Origin: an uncultured virus (IMG/VR IMGVR_UViG_3300034110_000988)
Taxonomy: Duplodnaviria; Heunggongvirae; Uroviricota; Caudoviricetes
Reading direction: 5' to 3' (one strand)
DNA length: 64,000 nucleotides
IMG/VR virus record: IMGVR_UViG_3300034110_000988
Below are positions 8,231-62,083 of this stretch, piece after piece. The position numbers and the translations under genes were made by a program. Under the pieces are notes generated by a model, which was not told the origin of the DNA, searched no databases, and saw only the letters and a list, made by a program, of their open reading frames with translations. Positions within the stretch are counted from its first letter, which is position 1, and each line of letters opens with the position of its first letter.

Positions 8231-8307
8231 CAATGACAATTATCTATTTATTAAATTGATTTTTTTCTCAATATGTGATATAATTGTCCCTTAATAAAGG
8301 AAAAATT

Positions 8308-8724
8308 ATGACCGACATTTTAAAGCGTTTAGCTGATTTAAAGCAACAAGAAGCCAATTTAAAAAAAGAAGCAAAAAAAATCACAAAAGAATTTGAAAGT
8401 TATATTGCTGACAAAAAAATCCCACTAGGTGAGCGGTGGTTCTTATTTGTTGAAGCACCTGATAATTTAAGTAACCACGAAAAATATTTCATTAAAGCTC
8501 AGTCTAAAGGCTTACAACATATTAAAGACAACTGGTTTGATGCACCAGAAGTTTATGGTCGTGGCAAAAGAATTAATACCAAAGAACTTTTTGAAGATAT
8601 TTTTGAAGATGAATCCTTAGCTTATGACCCTGCCGATTATGATCCATCTGAAATTGAATTATACAAAGATGCTATGGAAGACATCTTAAATCAAAATTGT
8701 GCTTCTTTCTGTTTTGACTGGTAA
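8308..8724 (+). CDS. hypothetical protein, paralogue of 61691..62083
   Basis: shared PLxERW and ExILxxNCxSFxFD motifs. Confidence 0.75.
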   Translation: MTDILKRLADLKQQEANLKKEAKKITKEFESYIADKKIPLGERWFLFVEAPDNLSNHEKYFIKAQSKGLQHIKDNWFDAPEVYGRGKRINTKELFEDIFEDESLAYDPADYDPSEIELYKDAMEDILNQNCASFCFDW

Positions 8725-14473: not shown

Positions 14474-14947
14474 ATGCGTAAATCTATTATCAGTATGTTT
14501 GCTGGTGTTGCAATCGCTTGTCTTTCAATGGTCGCAGTTGCGTCAGCTACTGAAGTGATTGGATCTGTCAGCACAACTTTCAATATGGTTGGCCCCAACG
14601 ACAAAATTGTTCTGTCGGCTTTCGATGATCCCGATGTCAAAGGTGTCTCTTGCTACCTGTCGAGTGCGAAAACAGGTGGTCTTTCTGGTGCTGTCGGTCT
14701 AGCCACTGATGCTTCGGATGCTTCGGTGTCGTGTGTTAAGACTGGGCCAATCACGTTTGATGACTCGCTTAAAAGTGGTAAGGAAGCTTTCAGTGAACGA
14801 CGTTCACTTGTTTTCAAGAAACTCCATGTGGTTCGTTTTATTGACCGCGAACGAAAAATGCTTATTTACATGACGTACAGCGATCACCTTGTGGACGGAA
14901 GTCCTAAAAATTCAATCTCTGCTGTCAGTTATGGCTCAACTCAGTAA
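14474..14947 (+). CDS. creA: CreA family secreted protein
   Basis: signal peptide; [37 protein letters not shown]. Confidence 0.9.
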
Positions 14948-24517: not shown

Positions 24518-24597
24518 GCGATGTGGTGGAGAGGTATCCACGTTGGTTTCAGCCAATTCCCTATGGAACAAGAGTTCGAGTCTCTTCCATCGCACCA
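24518..24597 (+). tRNA. aberrant tRNA-Leu-like gene (6-nt anticodon loop TTTCAG)
   Basis: GCGATG/CATCGC-ACCA acceptor, GTGG/CCAC D-stem, long variable arm, AAGAG-TTCGAGT-CTCTT T-arm. Confidence 0.7.
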
Positions 24598-27792: not shown

Positions 27793-28731
27793 ATGATTGT
27801 TAACCGTGTTGAAAATGGCCTTGTTGCTGAACAAAACTCTGTTTTCATTGCTTATTTCACCAAACCCAGCCACATCTATCAAAAGAACCCAGACTGCCGT
27901 GCTTGGGGCGATTCTGCTTGGTTTGCAAAAGTAGCCCTGTTGGGTGTGATGGTGCGTTGGGATGGTTCATTTGGTTTTGTGGGTGGTAAGGTTGATCCGG
28001 GTGAAACCCTGCTGGAAGCAGCTAAACGTGAAAGTTGGGAAGAAATCAACCATACTCCAAAAGATGGTGATTTGAAGTTGGTCTGTTCGCATTCGATGGT
28101 TGATGGCAAGTTTGTACAGAACACTCACCTTTATGCTTGTGAAGTGACCCCTGAAGAACTGTACAACATTCGTCGTAAATCGGGTGAAAGCGTTCATGGT
28201 CAAGTTGAAAGTGCGGGCTTTGTAGCTGTTCACATGGTGAAAGGTGCTCCAAATAACCTTCAAAACAACGTATGGGCGGGCACTGCACTGGCTGAACTCA
28301 ACATCTTGTTGGAATCTGGTATCATTGCTCCGGCTGCTTATGAAGACAATGGCTACGAATACAAAGAGCCTGACTATGCGGGTGCGTATGCTGAATACAT
28401 CGCTACCATGCCAGTAACTTCATCCACATCTAAAACCGTTTTGCAAATTGCTGAATTTATGGAAGTATTGAACAGCAACTATCCAAAAGAACACCGTAGT
28501 CTAGCCGGTGATGAATTTTTTGAAATGCTTGAAAAACGACTGGTTGACGCAATTAAGCTTGGCATTGAGGCAAAATACGAAAATAGTAATGTTGGTTGTT
28601 TTGACTCCCTTATTCTGACCAGTCCGTATGCTCCAACGATGAAAGAGTCCTACTTCTTGGTCGATCACTGCATGACTATTGTGGGGGATGGTGTGAAAAC
28701 TGACCATGATATGATTCGGTATATGAGCTAA
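27793..28731 (+). CDS. Nudix hydrolase, NUDT16-like, with C-terminal extension
   Basis: VRWDGSFGFVGGKVDPGETLLEAAKRESWEE Nudix box with R-x-D-G-x-x-G-F prefix. Confidence 0.8.
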   Translation: MIVNRVENGLVAEQNSVFIAYFTKPSHIYQKNPDCRAWGDSAWFAKVALLGVMVRWDGSFGFVGGKVDPGETLLEAAKRESWEEINHTPKDGDLKLVCSHSMVDGKFVQNTHLYACEVTPEELYNIRRKSGESVHGQVESAGFVAVHMVKGAPNNLQNNVWAGTALAELNILLESGIIAPAAYEDNGYEYKEPDYAGAYAEYIATMPVTSSTSKTVLQIAEFMEVLNSNYPKEHRSLAGDEFFEMLEKRLVDAIKLGIEAKYENSNVGCFDSLILTSPYAPTMKESYFLVDHCMTIVGDGVKTDHDMIRYMS

Positions 28732-36151: not shown

Positions 36152-36488
36152 CAAAATCGCAGCATTGTCATTTAGTTTAACAATGACATTAGATAGGTGT
36201 GTTAGCATTTAATTTGTAACATACCTTATATCGTTAGCATAATCAGGATTGGATACACTAACAAAATGACACCTAGAACAAAAATAGAGAATCCTACAAT
36301 TTTCATTTACAGTCTCCGCTTGTTTTGCCTCTATCTTACCACTGTTTTAAATAAATACAAAATAGTGAATTTCAATCCTGTCAATCAATATTTCAAATGA
36401 TTTAGTTCTTAACATTTTTCGCTATGATTGACAAAAAAGTCAAAGTCATTTAAACTGACATCAATTAAAACGTAACCGAGGATAAAAA

Positions 36489-36899
36489 ATGAATTCTAGC
36501 AAACCGTATCTTGTCAGTGCTGTCTATGAGTGGATTGTGGATAATGATTGCACACCACATGTGCTTGTAAAAGCTGATTATACTGGTTGTGATGTCCCAC
36601 AAGAGTTTGCTAAAGATGGTCAGATTGTTCTTAACGTGGCTATGATGGCGGTCAAATCGTTTGTGATGGATAAAGAAGCTCTTAGTTTCTCAGCTCGCTT
36701 CAAAGGTGTTGAACAATCTGTGTATGTTCCAATGGGTGCTGTTCTGGGTATTTTTGCACGCGAAAACGGACAAGGGATGATGTTTGAAGCCGACCCAGAA
36801 CCTGTTAAGCCAGAAGTTAAATCAGATACCGAAGTTAAAACTAATTCAGAAACGCCGTCAAAAAGTAATGTAAAACCTTTTTTGAAAGTTGTTAAGTGA
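36489..36899 (+). CDS. sspB: ClpXP adaptor SspB
   Basis: PYL..VYEWIVDNDCTPH, DGQIVLN, F.ARF, ARENGQGM, C-terminal XB motif LKVVK. Confidence 0.93.
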   Translation: MNSSKPYLVSAVYEWIVDNDCTPHVLVKADYTGCDVPQEFAKDGQIVLNVAMMAVKSFVMDKEALSFSARFKGVEQSVYVPMGAVLGIFARENGQGMMFEADPEPVKPEVKSDTEVKTNSETPSKSNVKPFLKVVK

Positions 36900-37006
36900 T
36901 ATTTTTGATGTAAAAAAAAGCCTCTTATGAGGCTTTTTTGTTGTTCTTAAAAACTCATAAATAAATGAAAATCTTGTGTTTTTTTTAATTTTTCTTAAAA
37001 AAGGTG

Positions 37007-37035
37007 TTGACTTGGGTACCGCTTTTCTCTATAAT
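37007..37035 (+). promoter_or_regulatory. sigma70 promoter of tRNA operon
   Basis: TTGACT-17-TATAAT. Confidence 0.8.
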
Positions 37036-37089
37036 TCTCACATCAAGACGAAACGGAGAAACACAATCTTGCAGCAAAAATGAGCACTT

Positions 37090-37182
37090 CCTTTGTATGG
37101 CACCTTTCAGGATAAAGGCTTCGGCCTCCCGATATAATACAAAGGTATGGAACACTACTCGGTGCATAGATAAATAGAGTAG
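37090..37182 (+). ncRNA. structured leader RNA with possible kissing loop
   Basis: CCTTTGTAT/ATACAAAGG, GGC-TTCG-GCC, CTACTC/GAGTAG; GCACC complementary to GGTGC. Confidence 0.45.
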
Positions 37183-37208
37183 ACCGCGATGATACTAGCA
37201 ATACCCAT

Positions 37209-37285
37209 GTCTGCGTAGCTCAGTTGGATAGAGCATCCGCCTTCTAAGCGGATGGTCACTGGTTCGAATCCAGTCGCAGGCACCA
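37209..37285 (+). tRNA. tRNA-Arg(TCT)
   Basis: canonical cloverleaf, TCCGC-CT-TCT-AA-GCGGA, CCA encoded. Confidence 0.95.
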
Positions 37286-37300
37286 GATTTTGATACACAC

Positions 37301-37373
37301 GGGGCTGTAGTTTAATGGGAAAACGACAGGGAGCATCCTTGTCTTCTGAGGACGACACTCAGCAGCTCCACCA
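37301..37373 (+). tRNA. tRNA-like RNA with Ala acceptor stem and non-canonical anticodon and T loops
   Basis: GGGGCTG/CAGCTCC-ACCA (G3.U70), GTTT/AAAC D-stem, GACAGGG-AGCAT-CCTTGTC, CTGAG-GACGACA-CTCAG. Confidence 0.75.
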
Positions 37374-37391
37374 GATTTATGTAACACCCAC

Positions 37392-37476
37392 GCCCGAGTG
37401 GTGAAATTGGTAGACGCGGGGGACTTAAAATCCCCTTCCTCACGGAGTGCCGGTTCGAGTCCGGCCTCGGGCACCA
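37392..37476 (+). tRNA. tRNA-Leu(TAA)
   Basis: GGGGA-CT-TAA-AA-TCCCC, long variable arm, CCA. Confidence 0.95.
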
Positions 37477-37490
37477 GATTTTAGTTTTAT

Positions 37491-37628
37491 GCATGTGTAG
37501 CTCAGTGGTAGAGCGTCACCAAGTTATGATGGGGAAACGCCCCGCAAAAAACACTTGGTTGGAGAAATGTCTCATGAGGCAGAGTATCCGTAAAGTAGGC
37601 CGCAGGTTCGAATCCTGTCACATTCACC
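37491..37628 (+). ncRNA. enlarged tRNA-like RNA (about 138 nt)
   Basis: canonical D-arm and T-arm, acceptor GCATGTG/CACATTC; about 60 extra nt in anticodon/variable region. Confidence 0.7.
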
Positions 37629-37701
37629 TTTTGTAGATGTAAAGCAACACTTCCTATATAGCAAAGAGCTATGGTGCAAACTAACTATAGAGGAATTTAA
37701 A

Positions 37702-38004
37702 ATGAAAGACGTATACATGTTGAAAGAAGTGGAAGCCGTTACTAAAATTGCTAAAAACATTTTTGGTGATATTGTTCATAAGGTTTACTATGCTGAATCG
37801 CATTATTCTACTGTTGAAGAAGCGGAAACTATCGCTAGAATTGACAGAGAAATTGCAAGTTCATTCCACACAGAGAATAGCATTGACCAAGATGGCAGAA
37901 CGATTGTCATTGAGTTTGTTAACGGTCGAAGTGTTGTGTTTTCTAACTCTGAGTGGGGTGCTATGGAAAAATTTGAGTTTGATGAGAATGTTGTTTGCAT
38001 TTAA
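37702..38004 (+). CDS. hypothetical protein
   Basis: GAGGA RBS. Confidence 0.7.
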   Translation: MKDVYMLKEVEAVTKIAKNIFGDIVHKVYYAESHYSTVEEAETIARIDREIASSFHTENSIDQDGRTIVIEFVNGRSVVFSNSEWGAMEKFEFDENVVCI

Positions 38005-38065
38005 CATCCGACCCTGTTATACTTAAAGCTTAACGAAACATAACCTTAATGAATAGGAGTTTGAT

Positions 38066-38239
38066 ATGGAAAAGCCAGTTGCTGTTGATGAATCTGCTGT
38101 TGAACCACGTAAGAGCCGTTTTGGTTCCACGCTTACCCTCAAAGGTAAAGTACTCAATACGGATACGTCGAAAGTCAGCGATGATGAATTGCTTCATCTT
38201 GCTTTGATGGCTGCACTTGCCAAAGACGCTGACCAGTAA
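38066..38239 (+). CDS. small hypothetical protein (57 aa), below ORF-track cutoff
   Basis: AGGAG RBS; MEKPVAVDESAVEPRKSRFG... Confidence 0.65.
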   Translation: MEKPVAVDESAVEPRKSRFGSTLTLKGKVLNTDTSKVSDDELLHLALMAALAKDADQ

Positions 38240-38261
38240 GGTTTATGCTGTAAAATGTTTT

Positions 38262-38387
38262 AAGAAAGAGCGATGTATGCACTACTGTTGGTAGTCTTGA
38301 ACTATCAAGGGGACGTGCCTTGCGATGACAACTTCGGTTGTTCTGAAGCGTTACTTTGGTATTGATACTAGTTAATAGCTCTATCTT
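38262..38387 (+). ncRNA. putative structured RNA upstream of tRNA-CAT
   Basis: AAGAAAGAGC/GCTCTATCTT closing stem; ACAAC-TTCG-GTTGT hairpin. Confidence 0.4.
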
Positions 38388-38470
38388 TACCGATTATGTT
38401 AGATATTGAGGCTGGTTAGTTTGTAATCCCCTCTTTATGGCTGACGTTTCAGTAGGTGCAAAGCTCGCAT

Positions 38471-38547
38471 GGGACTTTAGCTCAGTTGGTTAGAGCGTCC
38501 GACTCATAATCGGCAGGTCGTAGGTTCAAGTCCTACAAGTCCCACCA
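38471..38547 (+). tRNA. tRNA-CAT, probably Ile2 (lysidine type)
   Basis: CGA-CT-CAT-AA-TCG anticodon arm as in enterobacterial ileX; G1-C72 paired; CCA. Confidence 0.85.
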
Positions 38548-38623
38548 GATTAGTAATGTGTTTAATAGAAATCCACTTTCGAGTGGATTTTTTGTTTTCA
38601 GATATTAATCAATTTTAACTGCA

Positions 38624-39361
38624 TTATATATAGTACATTTCAATTAAATTAATGTTTTTCACAATGGCTTCTTGTGAACATTCAATACCTAATTCGCTTA
38701 ATTCTTTTTCATAAATTGTATAGTTTAAATACATGTGGATAATCTTTCTTTCATAACCAGTAAAGTTCTTGTAGTTATCAGCATTTATGTTAATAGGTTT
38801 CAATAGTTCGTTGTATTCTCTCTGCGTATATTTTATTTTCTCATTGTTCGGTTTAGAAACTATCCACACTGATTGATCTTGAGCAATTGAACCATCATCA
38901 TTATAGATAATTTGCTTTGGTAATGTGTACGAATTTAGTCCATCTATTTCTTTGGCTGAGTAATAATTATATTCTTTGTAATTTTGATCATCAAACATAA
39001 AGCTTCCATAGACTTCTCTTTCTACTTTTCCATTTTTTATGATGATATGCACTGGTTTGGTATAATCATATCTCGCAAAATAACCTAAGCCACCTATTAC
39101 ATATTCAATCTCAGTTATCTGTTTTGTTTTGTAATCTACGCCTATTTCAGTAGGTAATTCTTTGTCGTAATAGGGAATGTTTTGAATATCAATATTATAA
39201 TCAGACATCTCAAAACTTATAGATGTTTTCTTACTTTTTCTCATTCTACTTTTTAATATATGTTTAGGAATAGTTGCGATCTTCAATTTACCATAATAAA
39301 TATCAACAGCATCTGTTAAGCCGAGAGTTGTCTTGGTCTTATTTTTTAACCACTGTAACAT
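38624..39361 (-). CDS. hypothetical protein with C-terminal MxxI motif; tandem paralogue of 39384
   Basis: NIPY.D, SYT.P; ends INLIEMYYI. Confidence 0.75.
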   Translation of the reverse strand: MLQWLKNKTKTTLGLTDAVDIYYGKLKIATIPKHILKSRMRKSKKTSISFEMSDYNIDIQNIPYYDKELPTEIGVDYKTKQITEIEYVIGGLGYFARYDYTKPVHIIIKNGKVEREVYGSFMFDDQNYKEYNYYSAKEIDGLNSYTLPKQIIYNDDGSIAQDQSVWIVSKPNNEKIKYTQREYNELLKPININADNYKNFTGYERKIIHMYLNYTIYEKELSELGIECSQEAIVKNINLIEMYYI

Positions 39362-39383: not shown

Positions 39384-40121
39384 CTAAATATAAATCATTT
39401 TTAATAATAGTAAGTTAGCTTTAACACTTTCTTTGGTTGCTTCTATATTGAATTCTTTCAGTTTAAATATATAATCATCTGGTTTCATGTACATATTTAT
39501 TGCCATTCTTTCATACAATGTAAAACTTTTGAAATTATCTATATCTATATCAATTTCTGCTATCATTTTTTTATAGCTTTCATGCTTTATGGTAGTGGGC
39601 TTAAAGTTTTCATCACACTGATTTTCCATATTCCATGTAGATTCTTCTTGGTTAATTAAACCATTTTTGTATATGATTACATGCGGAACAGTATAAGAAG
39701 TGTATCCATATTGAGTTTTTGAAGTTTGGTGGTTGGATGCATAGTGTTCTTCTACTATTTTACCATTGTCAAATTTCATATGACTGGGGACTTCTCTATT
39801 TGTTCTATGCAGACGACCAAGACCTTCTCTGATGTATATTACTTCTTTTATCTGTTGGTCTTTATCTACAATGGTTATTGTGGGAAAGTCAGCATCAATA
39901 TACGGAATATTGGCAAAATCAATGACCAAATCATCTAGGTCATCTCGATACTGCAGACCTCTTAAATCTATAGCGTATAGGCCGTTATAATCATTCTCTA
40001 TTGAAGGATTAATTTTTCTAACAATTCGACCATCAAATTTTGATACCAGTAATTCGCCATAATAGGCTTCGAGATCTCTTCTGTAATATCGTTTGATTTT
40101 TTTTATTATTGATTTCAACAT
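39384..40121 (-). CDS. hypothetical protein with C-terminal MxxI motif
   Basis: ends LLLLKMIYI. Confidence 0.75.
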   Translation of the reverse strand: MLKSIIKKIKRYYRRDLEAYYGELLVSKFDGRIVRKINPSIENDYNGLYAIDLRGLQYRDDLDDLVIDFANIPYIDADFPTITIVDKDQQIKEVIYIREGLGRLHRTNREVPSHMKFDNGKIVEEHYASNHQTSKTQYGYTSYTVPHVIIYKNGLINQEESTWNMENQCDENFKPTTIKHESYKKMIAEIDIDIDNFKSFTLYERMAINMYMKPDDYIFKLKEFNIEATKESVKANLLLLKMIYI

Positions 40122-40965: not shown

Positions 40966-41041
40966 GTCCTTTGTAGCTCAGTTGGTAGAGCGGGCGGTAG
41001 AAGCCGCCGCGTCATAGGTTCGATTCCTGTCGGGGACACCA
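40966..41041 (+). tRNA. aberrant tRNA-Phe-like gene (6-nt loop TAGAAG)
   Basis: canonical D/T arms; GGCGG-TAGAAG-CCGCC; one extra nt in 5' acceptor strand. Confidence 0.75.
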
Positions 41042-54861: not shown

Positions 54862-56384
54862 ATGTCACTGTTAAACGTAATCTAACCAAAAATTTCGAAT
54901 TCAATCAACACGAACATCAAATCTATCAGACATGGATTGATAATAATTCTTTTCTACCGCAAAACAATTCAAAAACATTCTTTATGCCTATGCCACCGCC
55001 TAATATTACAGGTAAATTGCATATCGGCCATGCTTTATTCTTATCCATACAAGACGCATTAACTCGTTATTATCGAAAATCTGGTTATGAAACCTTATGG
55101 TTGCCGGGAACCGATCATGCTGGTATTGCTACACATTCTAAAATCATTGAATCTTTCAATAATGAACCGTTTTCAGAGATTGAATATGCGATTCGTGGAC
55201 AAGAAATAAAACAAATCAACCAGTCTACGATCATCCAACAAATACAACGAACAGGGGCCAGTTGCGATTGGAGCCGTTTAAACTATACAATGGATGACAA
55301 TTTTAAACAGGCTGCTATTCATGCTTTAAAACAATTGAATAATGATGGTTTACTCTATCAAAAAGATGGTCAATGGTATATTGCTATGCAAGATATGGCA
55401 AAAGAATTACTGGCCGATATCCAATCTGGTTCGTTTATTATTAACGATATCACACAACTCAATAAACTTATTCCAATGTTAGAACATAGTGAAGATTGGT
55501 GCATATCAAGACAAATTAAATGGGGACTTTCTTTACCTATTTACATTGATAATAACAACAACCATCACATCTTTAATAACGATGAAGAAGCCTCTCTTCA
55601 TTTACCAGATGGTTTTTTGAAAGAGACATCTACGTTTGATACGTGGTTTACATCATCGCTTTGGCCGTTTGCGACACTAGGCTGGCCGAATAATACTGAT
55701 GACTATGCTAGATTTTATCCAGCTCAAATCATTGAAACAGGAGCTGACATTTTGTTCTTTTGGTGTGCTCGCATGTTGATGATGGGGAAAAAATTGACGG
55801 GTAACTATCCTTTCAAAGAAATCTACCTTCATGGCATTTGTAGAGACAGCGAAGGTAAGAAGATGTCTAAGTCATTAGGCAACGGTATTGACCCATTGGA
55901 TATCATTGATAGATATGGTACCGATACTTTACGATTTGCCTTATTGTCTAAGGCGACCAACAAAGATATGAAAATGGCTGATAATGACTTTTTGAATGCG
56001 TCCAAATTTATCAATAAAATTTGGCAATCTTTTAGGTTTATTGATATGCATATCAAAGCAAATGAAACACCTTGTGACTTAAACAATCAGGGTTCTTTTA
56101 CAGAACACTTGAATACGTTGAAAATACAATTTCATGAAGCTATGAATAAGCGTGAGTTATTAAATATTACGCGAGACATTCAGTATTCTTACAAGCATCA
56201 TTTTTGTGATGAGTGGATTGAACAGAATAAAAAAGCTATCTTCGCTGGCGATCATGATATTCTTCAACATGGTTTGTTTATTTTAATGAGTTATATGGAA
56301 TTGCTTCATTGTTTCATTCCATTCATTACTACTTACATTACAGAGCATTTTGAACAAGGAGATATTATCCAGAATCAATATTGA
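54862..56384 (+). CDS. valS: minimal valyl-tRNA synthetase; N-terminus split by a -1 frameshift (annotated ORF 54984..56384)
   Basis: PPPNITGKLHIGH, WLPGTDHAGIAT, DWCISRQ..WG, DTWF.S.LWPF, TG.DILFFW.ARM, KMSKS; homologous N-terminus continues upstream of 54984 without an in-frame ATG. Confidence 0.9.
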
Positions 56385-61556: not shown

Positions 61557-61690
61557 GCCCCTTCACCTCAAATAATACTTCATGTTACATCAAAAAGAAT
61601 ATTAATCAAATCTTGATATTTCTTTTATATTTTGTTGTTTAAATAATGATTTTTTGCTATAATATCTATCTACATTTAATGGAGAATTAC

Positions 61691-62083
61691 ATGTCTATTC
61701 ATCAACAGTTACAAGCAATTAAAGATAAAATTGATGCTTTAAAACCAGAGTTTGTAATCTATATTAAAGATCAATCAGTTCCATTGATTGAGCGATGGGA
61801 TGCTTTTGTTCTGGCTGATAGTCGTTTGAAAGAGCATAATAACTACGGCCCCGGCTTTGCATCATTAGATCGTGAAATTGTTGGGCATGACCGAGTTATC
61901 CATATGGTTCGTGAATCTACTAAAGACACTTGTGTTTTGGTGGATGATATCATGAATAAGCAGCTTAATCTTGATGAGATTCGTAGTGATTATGATGCCA
62001 ATCTATTAGAAAAAGTAGATATTGATGCGTTGAAGGAAGAAATTCTTGCTGCCAATTGTGGTTCGTTTACTTTTGATTTCTAA
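61691..62083 (+). CDS. hypothetical protein, paralogue of 8308
   Basis: PLIERW, EEILAANCGSFTFDF. Confidence 0.75.
   Translation: MSIHQQLQAIKDKIDALKPEFVIYIKDQSVPLIERWDAFVLADSRLKEHNNYGPGFASLDREIVGHDRVIHMVRESTKDTCVLVDDIMNKQLNLDEIRSDYDANLLEKVDIDALKEEILAANCGSFTFDF

Follow-up and report, generated by a model that had tools for sequence, protein, structure and literature searches.

Non-proteinogenic tRNA-Gly species of Staphylococcus serve as donors for Fem transferases; they are charged yet diverted from the ribosome, and they have altered T-arm features, the T-stem changes weakening the binding of EF-Tu while the anticodon loop is normal. Non-decoding RNAs of alanine type or of tRNA-like form are also already known from phages, namely the 'TLD only' RNA of the mycobacteriophage DS6A and the RNAC and RNAD of phage T4. 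RNAC and RNAD are encoded within the T4 tRNA gene cluster and are not, to our knowledge, known as derivatives of tRNA-Ala. In the passage cited here they are stable small RNAs 'of yet unknown functions' (PMC9697503). The DS6A RNA is a tag-less, tmRNA-like molecule which its authors, in the portion of their paper drawn on here, linked to a tmRNA inhibitor that may titrate SmpB (Hudson, Lau & Williams 2014, PMC4131195). The same portion describes the tRNA-like domain of tmRNA as having no anticodon stem-loop, with SmpB filling that space (PMC4131195). The bacterial alanine identity set, as given in the excerpt used here, consists of A73, G2-C71, G3.U70, G4-C69 and G20 (PMC9976931, Table 1), and recognition of G3.U70 by AlaRS extends even to minihelices and microhelices (PMC9976931).

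The RNA described here is encoded at 37301-37373 (+) of the window, by which we mean the whole 64,000-nt stretch of DNA from an uncultured virus that was analysed. It shares with the DS6A RNA a phage origin and an alanine-type acceptor. The DS6A element, however, has a canonical T arm and neither D stem nor anticodon arm, whereas in the RNA at 37301-37373 the cloverleaf is complete and the T loop has been rewritten. The likeness to T4 RNAC and RNAD, small RNAs that likewise do not decode and come from a lytic phage rich in tRNAs, is one of description only. The RNA departs from the Staphylococcus tRNA-Gly species in having the T stem of an ordinary tRNA-Ala, and the window yielded no gene for a transferase. 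What is new is a full cloverleaf with all stems intact and both the anticodon and T loops rewritten. No full-cloverleaf, alanine-type mimic in a phage was described in the literature searched as full text, which is not proof of absence, and the portions of two phage-tRNA papers considered here (PMC10264068 and PMC11555353) make no mention of T-loop changes or decoys.

Structure of the RNA

The RNA lies in a small operon downstream of a gene for the ClpXP adaptor SspB. The features of the region are as follows.

36489-36899 (+): gene for SspB (ClpXP adaptor), adjoining the RNA operon and outside it (Pfam PF04386, E 6.3e-34; phrog_8945, E 3.5e-27)
36914-36939 (+): hairpin resembling an intrinsic terminator at the end of the sspB unit, 11 pairs followed by a T run
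37007-37035 (+): sigma-70-type promoter of the RNA operon, TTGACT and TATAAT with a 17-nt spacer, 11/12 matches
37043-37208 (+): leader of about 165 nt, 5' of the first tRNA, placed from the sequence
37209-37285 (+): tRNA-Arg(TCT), found by ARAGORN and by Rfam RF00005 (70.6 bits)
37291-37379 (+): 89-nt unit (spacer, RNA and trailer) between CCAGATTT repeats, present or absent in close strains
37301-37373 (+): cloverleaf of 73 nt, derived from tRNA-Ala, its anticodon and T loops rewritten
37392-37476 (+): tRNA-Leu(TAA), found by ARAGORN and by Rfam (55.5 bits)
37491-37626 (+): second aberrant tRNA-shaped gene (Rfam RF00005, 41.1 bits), a 77-nt stretch replacing the anticodon region

The acceptor stem has 7 bp (GGGGCTG/CAGCTCC) and includes G3.T70, or G3.U70 in the RNA; it is followed by A73 and an encoded CCA. 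These are the ends, GGGGCTG/CAGCTCC-ACCA with G3.U70 and A73, that the initial annotation had given, and all of them are read on the plus strand. The D arm consists of the perfect stem noted earlier, GTTT/AAAC (4 bp), and a 7-nt loop, AATGGGA. Two readings of the anticodon arm can be made. In the first, a 5-bp stem closes a 7-nt loop, GAGCATC; in the second, G26-C44 and G32-C38 are also paired, which gives a 7-bp stem, a 5-nt loop (AGCAT) and a 2-nt linker. The second had been proposed at the outset and is seen, and the first is equally readable. The T arm has a 5-bp stem (CTGAG/CTCAG) and, as also described before, the loop GACGACA. Compared with the consensus T54-Psi55-C56-R57-A58, this loop retains C56, G57 and A58, while position 54 is G and position 55 is A. 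The variable region is 3 nt long and all 21 of the 21 cloverleaf pairs are standard.

The minimum free energy fold is the cloverleaf itself, with the anticodon helix lengthened to 8 bp and closed by a GCA triloop. The folding energy is -27.8 kcal/mol (z = -3.08), and none of 200 shuffled sequences was as stable. A canonical 7-nt anticodon loop with U33 and unpaired positions 32-38 was not found, since position 33 is A and G32 can pair with C38.

Standard searches pass over the gene. ARAGORN at its default setting finds 12 tRNA genes across the 64,000-nt window, and 37301-37373 is not among them. The Rfam tRNA model (RF00005) has no match there at the gathering score, nor at E<=10 in a search of 801 nt. 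With the ARAGORN threshold lowered, no call is made at 95%, and at 90% or lower the locus is reported as a tRNA-Cys(gca) with a 7-nt loop. Neither ARAGORN nor Rfam calls a tmRNA at 37301-37373. Protein coding at the locus was rejected, since the ORFs that overlap the tRNA genes here are all short and on the minus strand. An attP remnant of a tRNA or tmRNA gene was likewise rejected, both strands of the full cloverleaf being present and integrase matches numbering 0 among the 87 ORF translations.

Alanine identity and decoding

The alanine identity set, as tabulated in the excerpt cited (PMC9976931, Table 1), is complete in the RNA, the assignment of G20 depending on how the 7-nt D loop is numbered. 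In the copy of the gene on the metagenome contig L008, described below, the identity pair G4-C69 is G4.U69. On these features the RNA is probably alanylated.

Normal decoding, judged from the same sequence, appears implausible, because the anticodon arm closes to 7-8 bp with a loop of 3-5 nt that has no U33, and because T54 and Psi55 are absent. The initial annotation had called the RNA probably non-decoding, and the missing U33, the Watson-Crick pair G32-C38 and the failure of default ARAGORN and Rfam to call a tRNA are all in keeping with that description. The relaxed ARAGORN call, with its 7-nt loop, is what speaks for a molecule that still decodes, whether as a mis-assigning tRNA that combines a GCA (Cys-codon) anticodon with alanine identity or as a true tRNA-Cys. 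We regard this as barely credible. A33 stands in place of the near-universal U33, G32 and C38 are able to pair, the T54 and Psi55 positions are altered, and the Rfam model is silent even at E<=10. A true tRNA-Cys would moreover be at odds with A73 and G3.U70, which belong to the alanine set (PMC9976931, Table 1, in the excerpt cited). Recoding of Cys codons to alanine was rejected: of 6 homologues, 5 have a Cys aligned with Cys21 of the phage SspB, and the frequency of Cys codons, 13.6 per 1000, is normal.

Origin from phage tRNA-Ala(UGC)

A BLAST search of phage genomes with an 85-nt query, comprising the RNA and short flanks, gave as best matches the annotated tRNA-Ala(TGC) genes of 4MG (an Escherichia phage), KPP-1 and Ro1 (a Raoultella phage), all phages of the Vequintavirinae. 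The matches are weak (E 0.06-0.2) but nearly full-length, with 74% identity over 91-95% of the query. The RNA is identical to the 4MG tRNA-Ala in the 5' strand of the acceptor, in both strands of the anticodon stem and in both strands of the T stem. Its first 24 nt are those of the tRNA-Ala genes of two further viral contigs (L009 and L010), and its D arm is also that of the Bacillus phage P59 gene. The gene order in 4MG and Ro1 is Arg-Ala-Leu, and here the RNA takes the place of Ala between tRNA-Arg and tRNA-Leu. Canonical phage tRNA-Ala genes are recovered with E values of 1.8e-10 to 4.3e-8 by a covariance model (R1) that was built from the RNA and the homologue in L008, which is better than expected by chance. 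Because of the identities in the stems and at the 5' end, the shared Arg-Ala-Leu order and the matches of the covariance model, the RNA is assigned by sequence comparison to the phage tRNA-Ala(UGC) lineage.

The resemblance to this lineage is confined to particular parts of the molecule. The tRNA-Ala(UGC) genes of 4MG, Ro1, P59 and the contigs L009 and L010 have the same acceptor 5' strand, G3.U70, A73 and CCA, and those of 4MG and Ro1 also have the same anticodon stem, T stem and Arg/Leu flanks. By contrast, the anticodon loop is CTTGCAC or TTTGCAC in the phage tRNA-Ala(UGC) genes and GAGCATC in the RNA, and the T loop is TTCGATT in the former and GACGACA in the latter. The RNA further differs from them in its 3-nt variable region and in being called by neither default ARAGORN nor Rfam.

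Two patterns had 0 matches in genome contigs, among them the 24-nt 5' part of the RNA, which was absent from the 185,579 species genomes searched. Three candidate-specific patterns gave 0, 0 and 1 matches in IMG/VR; the single match (L004) was rejected as a chance match in a GC-rich coding region with no tRNA. An 18-nt 5' pattern found 3 loci, two of them canonical tRNA-Ala genes and one a tRNA-Glu gene.

Operon and phage setting

The genes of the operon are arranged in the order leader, tRNA-Arg(TCT), RNA, tRNA-Leu(TAA) and second aberrant tRNA-shaped gene. The promoter at 37007-37035 is the best within 36400-38700 and is conserved in L008. The leader folds no better than shuffled sequences (z = +0.44) and is about 93% identical in L008. 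One contig of an RNA library (X20) covers 37056-37198 with zero differences, by which transcription is not proven, and the lack of any contig over 37312-37368 in that library carries no weight either way. The 3' context of the RNA, ACCAGATT, is common to 5 other tRNA-type genes; it occurs 11 times in the window against 2.5 expected, and its plus-strand occurrences lie at the 3' ends of tRNA-type genes in 6 of 6 cases.

The acceptor, D and T arms of the gene at 37491-37626 are tRNA-like. The gene contains a C2.U71 mismatch, lacks a complete CCA and is conserved in L008 with 2 differences. It is probably a second non-decoder of the same operon. Its 77-nt insert was considered as a group I intron and rejected as too short. 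Two further tRNA-like genes of the window have unusual anticodon loops. The gene at 24518-24597 (+) is of type II (long variable arm), with a 6-nt anticodon loop (TTTCAG), a 5-bp D stem and a ACCAGATT trailer; ARAGORN gives it a 2-nt anticodon, and it may be either a damaged tRNA of the Leu or Ser type or an unusual one of the UCA type. In the gene at 40966-41041 (+) the anticodon loop is likewise of 6 nt (TAGAAG) and the acceptor stem is weak; the Rfam tRNA score, 30.9 bits, is barely over the threshold, and here too ARAGORN gives a 2-nt anticodon.

The window has a GC content of about 35% and is thus AT-rich. No PHROG family was found for 24 of its 28 large ORFs and no Pfam family for most of its 87 ORF translations. 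No close relatives of the window were found in the phage collection or in IMG/VR; of two neighbouring proteins used as queries (250 aa and 982 aa), neither has a match in IMG/VR, and the 982-aa protein has none in the phage collection (tblastn). The window appears to be a segment of a very large, novel phage. In its tRNA genes it is similar to the Pseudomonas jumbo phage PA5oct, whose own tRNA genes provide the best DNA matches to the region of the operon (82%, covering 20% of the query). PA5oct has no counterpart of the RNA, either in the matching slot or elsewhere in its record. The closest named relatives of the phage SspB are Pseudomonas SspB proteins (55-68% identity), and its C-terminal LKVVK is conserved in the alignment of homologues. 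A Pseudomonas-type host is likely, as judged from these sequences, because the SspB is closest to that of Pseudomonas and the tRNA genes are PA5oct-like.

Several other genes of the window may be recorded here. The ORF at 54984-56384 (+) encodes a 466-aa fragment of valine-tRNA ligase, corresponding to about residues 352-693 of an 860-residue model, which scores 439.6 bits against a family cut-off of 704 and is truncated at both ends, having lost the catalytic N-terminal portion as well as the C terminus; no matching N-terminal piece was found in the ORFs immediately upstream. Paralogous pairs are formed by DEDDh-exonuclease-like proteins (PF21762; 1086-2099 and 7202-8230, +) and by DUF7020 proteins (8284-8724 and 61646-62083, +). 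Two adjacent ORFs of 245 aa without a family (38624-39361 and 39384-40121, -) are paired here on equal length alone. The ORF at 14474-14947 (+) encodes a homologue of CreA (PF05981, E 6.7e-51), a protein typical of Gammaproteobacteria.

Relatives and alleles

A metagenome scan found one locus, L008 (JGI metagenome contig Ga0308158_10000001). It carries the same operon, about 97% identical, with a 136-aa sspB-like ORF upstream. Its version of the RNA differs from that of the window by a single base, C69 to T (U), which turns G4-C69 into G4.U69 and keeps the pair. The L008 operon is located at about 978 kb of a metagenomic contig of 1,859,102 nt, in which the 29-mer searched for occurs once, and the window's own SspB cluster (P0001) is also found on a contig of 773,483 nt. 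These two contigs are either mis-assemblies or belong to a phage-like genome far larger than those of known phages.

Logan contigs from three DNA metagenomes (X2, X4 and X9) were aligned to 36400-38100. The X4 contig spanning 37238-37417 has 2 differences from the window, both in spacers, and the X9 contig spanning the same interval has 3, two of which are placed in spacers; in the ORF downstream, the metagenome contigs differ from the window by about 6%. A second allele, in which the 89-nt unit between the CCAGATTT repeats is absent and 37290 is joined to 37380, is present in contigs of all three metagenomes. In X4 the two alleles have similar depths (129.9 without the unit vs 134.3 with it). 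A third allele, found in X2 and X9, follows the window over 37238-37331 and is unlike it thereafter. The RNA is conserved where it is present and is dispensable, because close strains exist without the 89-nt unit. Every relative that carries the RNA is about 97% identical, a closeness at which selection cannot be proven, and none of them shows a compensatory double change.

The deletion allele also bears on the proposal that the RNA is nothing but a processing signal, a tRNA-shaped element that marks the precursor for cutting by RNase P and 3' nucleases. Such an element would have the 3' context of real tRNAs and would keep its shape and not its loops, as is seen here. We nevertheless think it unlikely: the two ordinary tRNAs on either side bring their own processing sites, tRNA-Arg and tRNA-Leu are joined directly in the natural deletion allele, and a full alanine identity set is superfluous for cutting.

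Changes in stems and loops

In the comparison with the 4MG tRNA-Ala, 3 of 42 stem bases differ and no pair is broken. All three changes keep or improve pairing, two acceptor wobble pairs having become Watson-Crick pairs and G10.U25 having become G10-C25. The loops present the opposite picture, with 6 of 7 bases changed in the anticodon loop and 4 of 7 in the T loop, together 10 of 14 (Fisher p = 6e-6 for the contrast with the stems). In three comparisons of one canonical tRNA-Ala gene with another, the pattern was reversed: the stems differed at 13-16 of 42 bases and the loops at 1-2 of 14. Positions 26/44, 32/38 and 33/37 of the RNA can pair as G26-C44, G32-C38 and A33-U37, which would make one long anticodon helix. 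Since 4MG was chosen as the best BLAST match, its stem identity is somewhat inflated; that the 20 of 20 identical bases in two stems arose from the choice of 4MG alone is unlikely. The sequence pattern suggests that the fold was maintained while the two loops changed, which is unlike neutral decay.

The main rival explanation is decay of exactly this kind. The RNA would be a plain relic of a tRNA-Ala that lost decoding as the host supplies plenty of tRNA-Ala(UGC), and that rides along until it is deleted. Bacterial rRNA operons commonly carry tRNA-Ala(UGC), so that selection on a phage copy could be weak. An allele with an exact 89-nt deletion coexists in X2, X4 and X9, and the same 64 kb contain three other aberrant tRNA-type genes (24518-24597, 40966-41041 and 37491-37626), which a general decay of the tRNA set would fit equally well; the known relatives are too close to reveal purifying selection. 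Neutral decay, however, should strike stems as often as loops, and the observed counts are 3/42 and 10/14 with 0 of 21 pairs broken. Neither the conversion of two acceptor wobble pairs to Watson-Crick pairs nor the extension of the anticodon helix by new pairs is expected of a relic. We consider a relic possible, and a serious competitor, though we incline against it.

Comparison with tmRNA and the neighbouring sspB

The initial annotation described the ends of the RNA as tmRNA-like and pointed to sspB, a part of the ssrA pathway, close upstream. The match to the E. coli tmRNA acceptor on which the tmRNA-like label rested is exact: by direct reading, the ssrA ends have the same seven-base strands, G3.U70 and ACCA. 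BLAST of E. coli genomes, with the 73 nt as the query, found nothing at E<=10. The label does not hold, however, as these are the ends of tRNA-Ala, the 5' strand being identical in phage tRNA-Ala and the 3' strand nearly so. Beyond the acceptor the molecules diverge. The tRNA-like domain of tmRNA has no anticodon stem-loop, a reduced D region and a canonical T arm, whereas the RNA has a perfect D stem, an anticodon helix of 5-8 bp and a non-canonical T loop.

The idea that arose from this likeness is that the RNA is a decoy for SmpB or tmRNA, acting with the neighbouring sspB. In its favour are the common acceptor strands, the presence of sspB upstream both here, where the ORF at 36489-36899 was confirmed by its PF04386 match and ends 402 nt 5' of the RNA, and in L008, and a match of model R1 to an element of the phage 'TLD only' kind at DS6A 28478-28560. 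That match scores 26.3 bits, and the element has an alanine-type acceptor (G3.U70, A73), a canonical T arm and no cloverleaf; the Rfam models had no match in DS6A 1-50000 at the gathering score. The decoy reading is nonetheless very unlikely. The RNA is a full cloverleaf whose D stem and anticodon helix lie where tmRNA has SmpB (PMC4131195, in the portion cited), its T loop is GACGACA whereas E. coli tmRNA keeps TTCAACT and the DS6A element TTCGATT, and tmRNA is called by neither of the two programs.

The link to sspB is likewise not supported. The terminator at 36914-36939 and the promoter at 37007-37035 divide sspB and the RNA operon into separate units. Two IMG/VR phage contigs (L001 and L002) encode relatives of the SspB with 48-52% identity. 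No tRNA-type gene lies within 3 kb of sspB in either, so that 0 of 2 other phage sspB loci have such a gene; elsewhere, sspB is linked to the RNA only in the approximately 97% identical L008. The window provides no counterpart either for the suggestion that the RNA donates alanine for non-ribosomal transfer, the partner enzymes being found in 0 of 87 ORF translations: Fem/MurM-type, L/F-type and other aminoacyl-tRNA transferase families and SmpB were all absent from this set. No partner enzyme or target for the RNA was found in the window.

Proposed role

Our preferred reading, which we hold at about even confidence, is that the RNA is a structurally maintained, non-decoding mimic of tRNA-Ala that is kept in tRNA shape and acts off the decoding path. 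Under this proposal, the strong sigma-70-type promoter at 37007-37035 would produce a precursor that contains the leader, tRNA-Arg, the RNA, tRNA-Leu and the aberrant tRNA. The RNA would be excised in the same way as its neighbours, by RNase P at the 5' end and with the ACCAGATT context marking the 3' end. The host AlaRS would then alanylate it by means of G3.U70, A73, G2-C71 and G4-C69. Off the decoding path, it may occupy proteins that recognise the acceptor end of tRNA-Ala, as a competitor or decoy, or it may be a private carrier of alanine. Its role would be accessory.

A stronger version of this proposal is offered as a tentative and rather doubtful suggestion. The RNA could be a purpose-built, alanine-chargeable and ribosome-inert mimic, in which the surfaces read by AlaRS, and probably those read by EF-Tu and RNase P, have been kept while the anticodon loop and T54/Psi55 have been rewritten, and which is an accessory weapon of a huge Pseudomonas-type phage. 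In that case it would either be a private donor of alanine or, as a decoy or sink, tie up a host factor or defence toxin that recognises the acceptor end of tRNA-Ala. If so, its presence and absence among near-identical strains would reflect an arms race, and the RNA could exemplify a recurrent class of alanine-type, anticodon-less phage RNAs.

Even if the RNA is a relic, it is a warning that relaxed tRNA finders would mislabel such genes as tRNA-Cys. Because alanine identity is independent of the anticodon, tRNA-Ala is the easiest starting point for an RNA that must be charged and must not decode. The alleles that occur naturally, some having the 89-nt unit and some lacking it, amount to a ready-made experiment. 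That all the marks for loading with alanine and the four stems have been kept, while both loops have been rewritten, hints at an undescribed use of charged tRNA mimics in phage infection.
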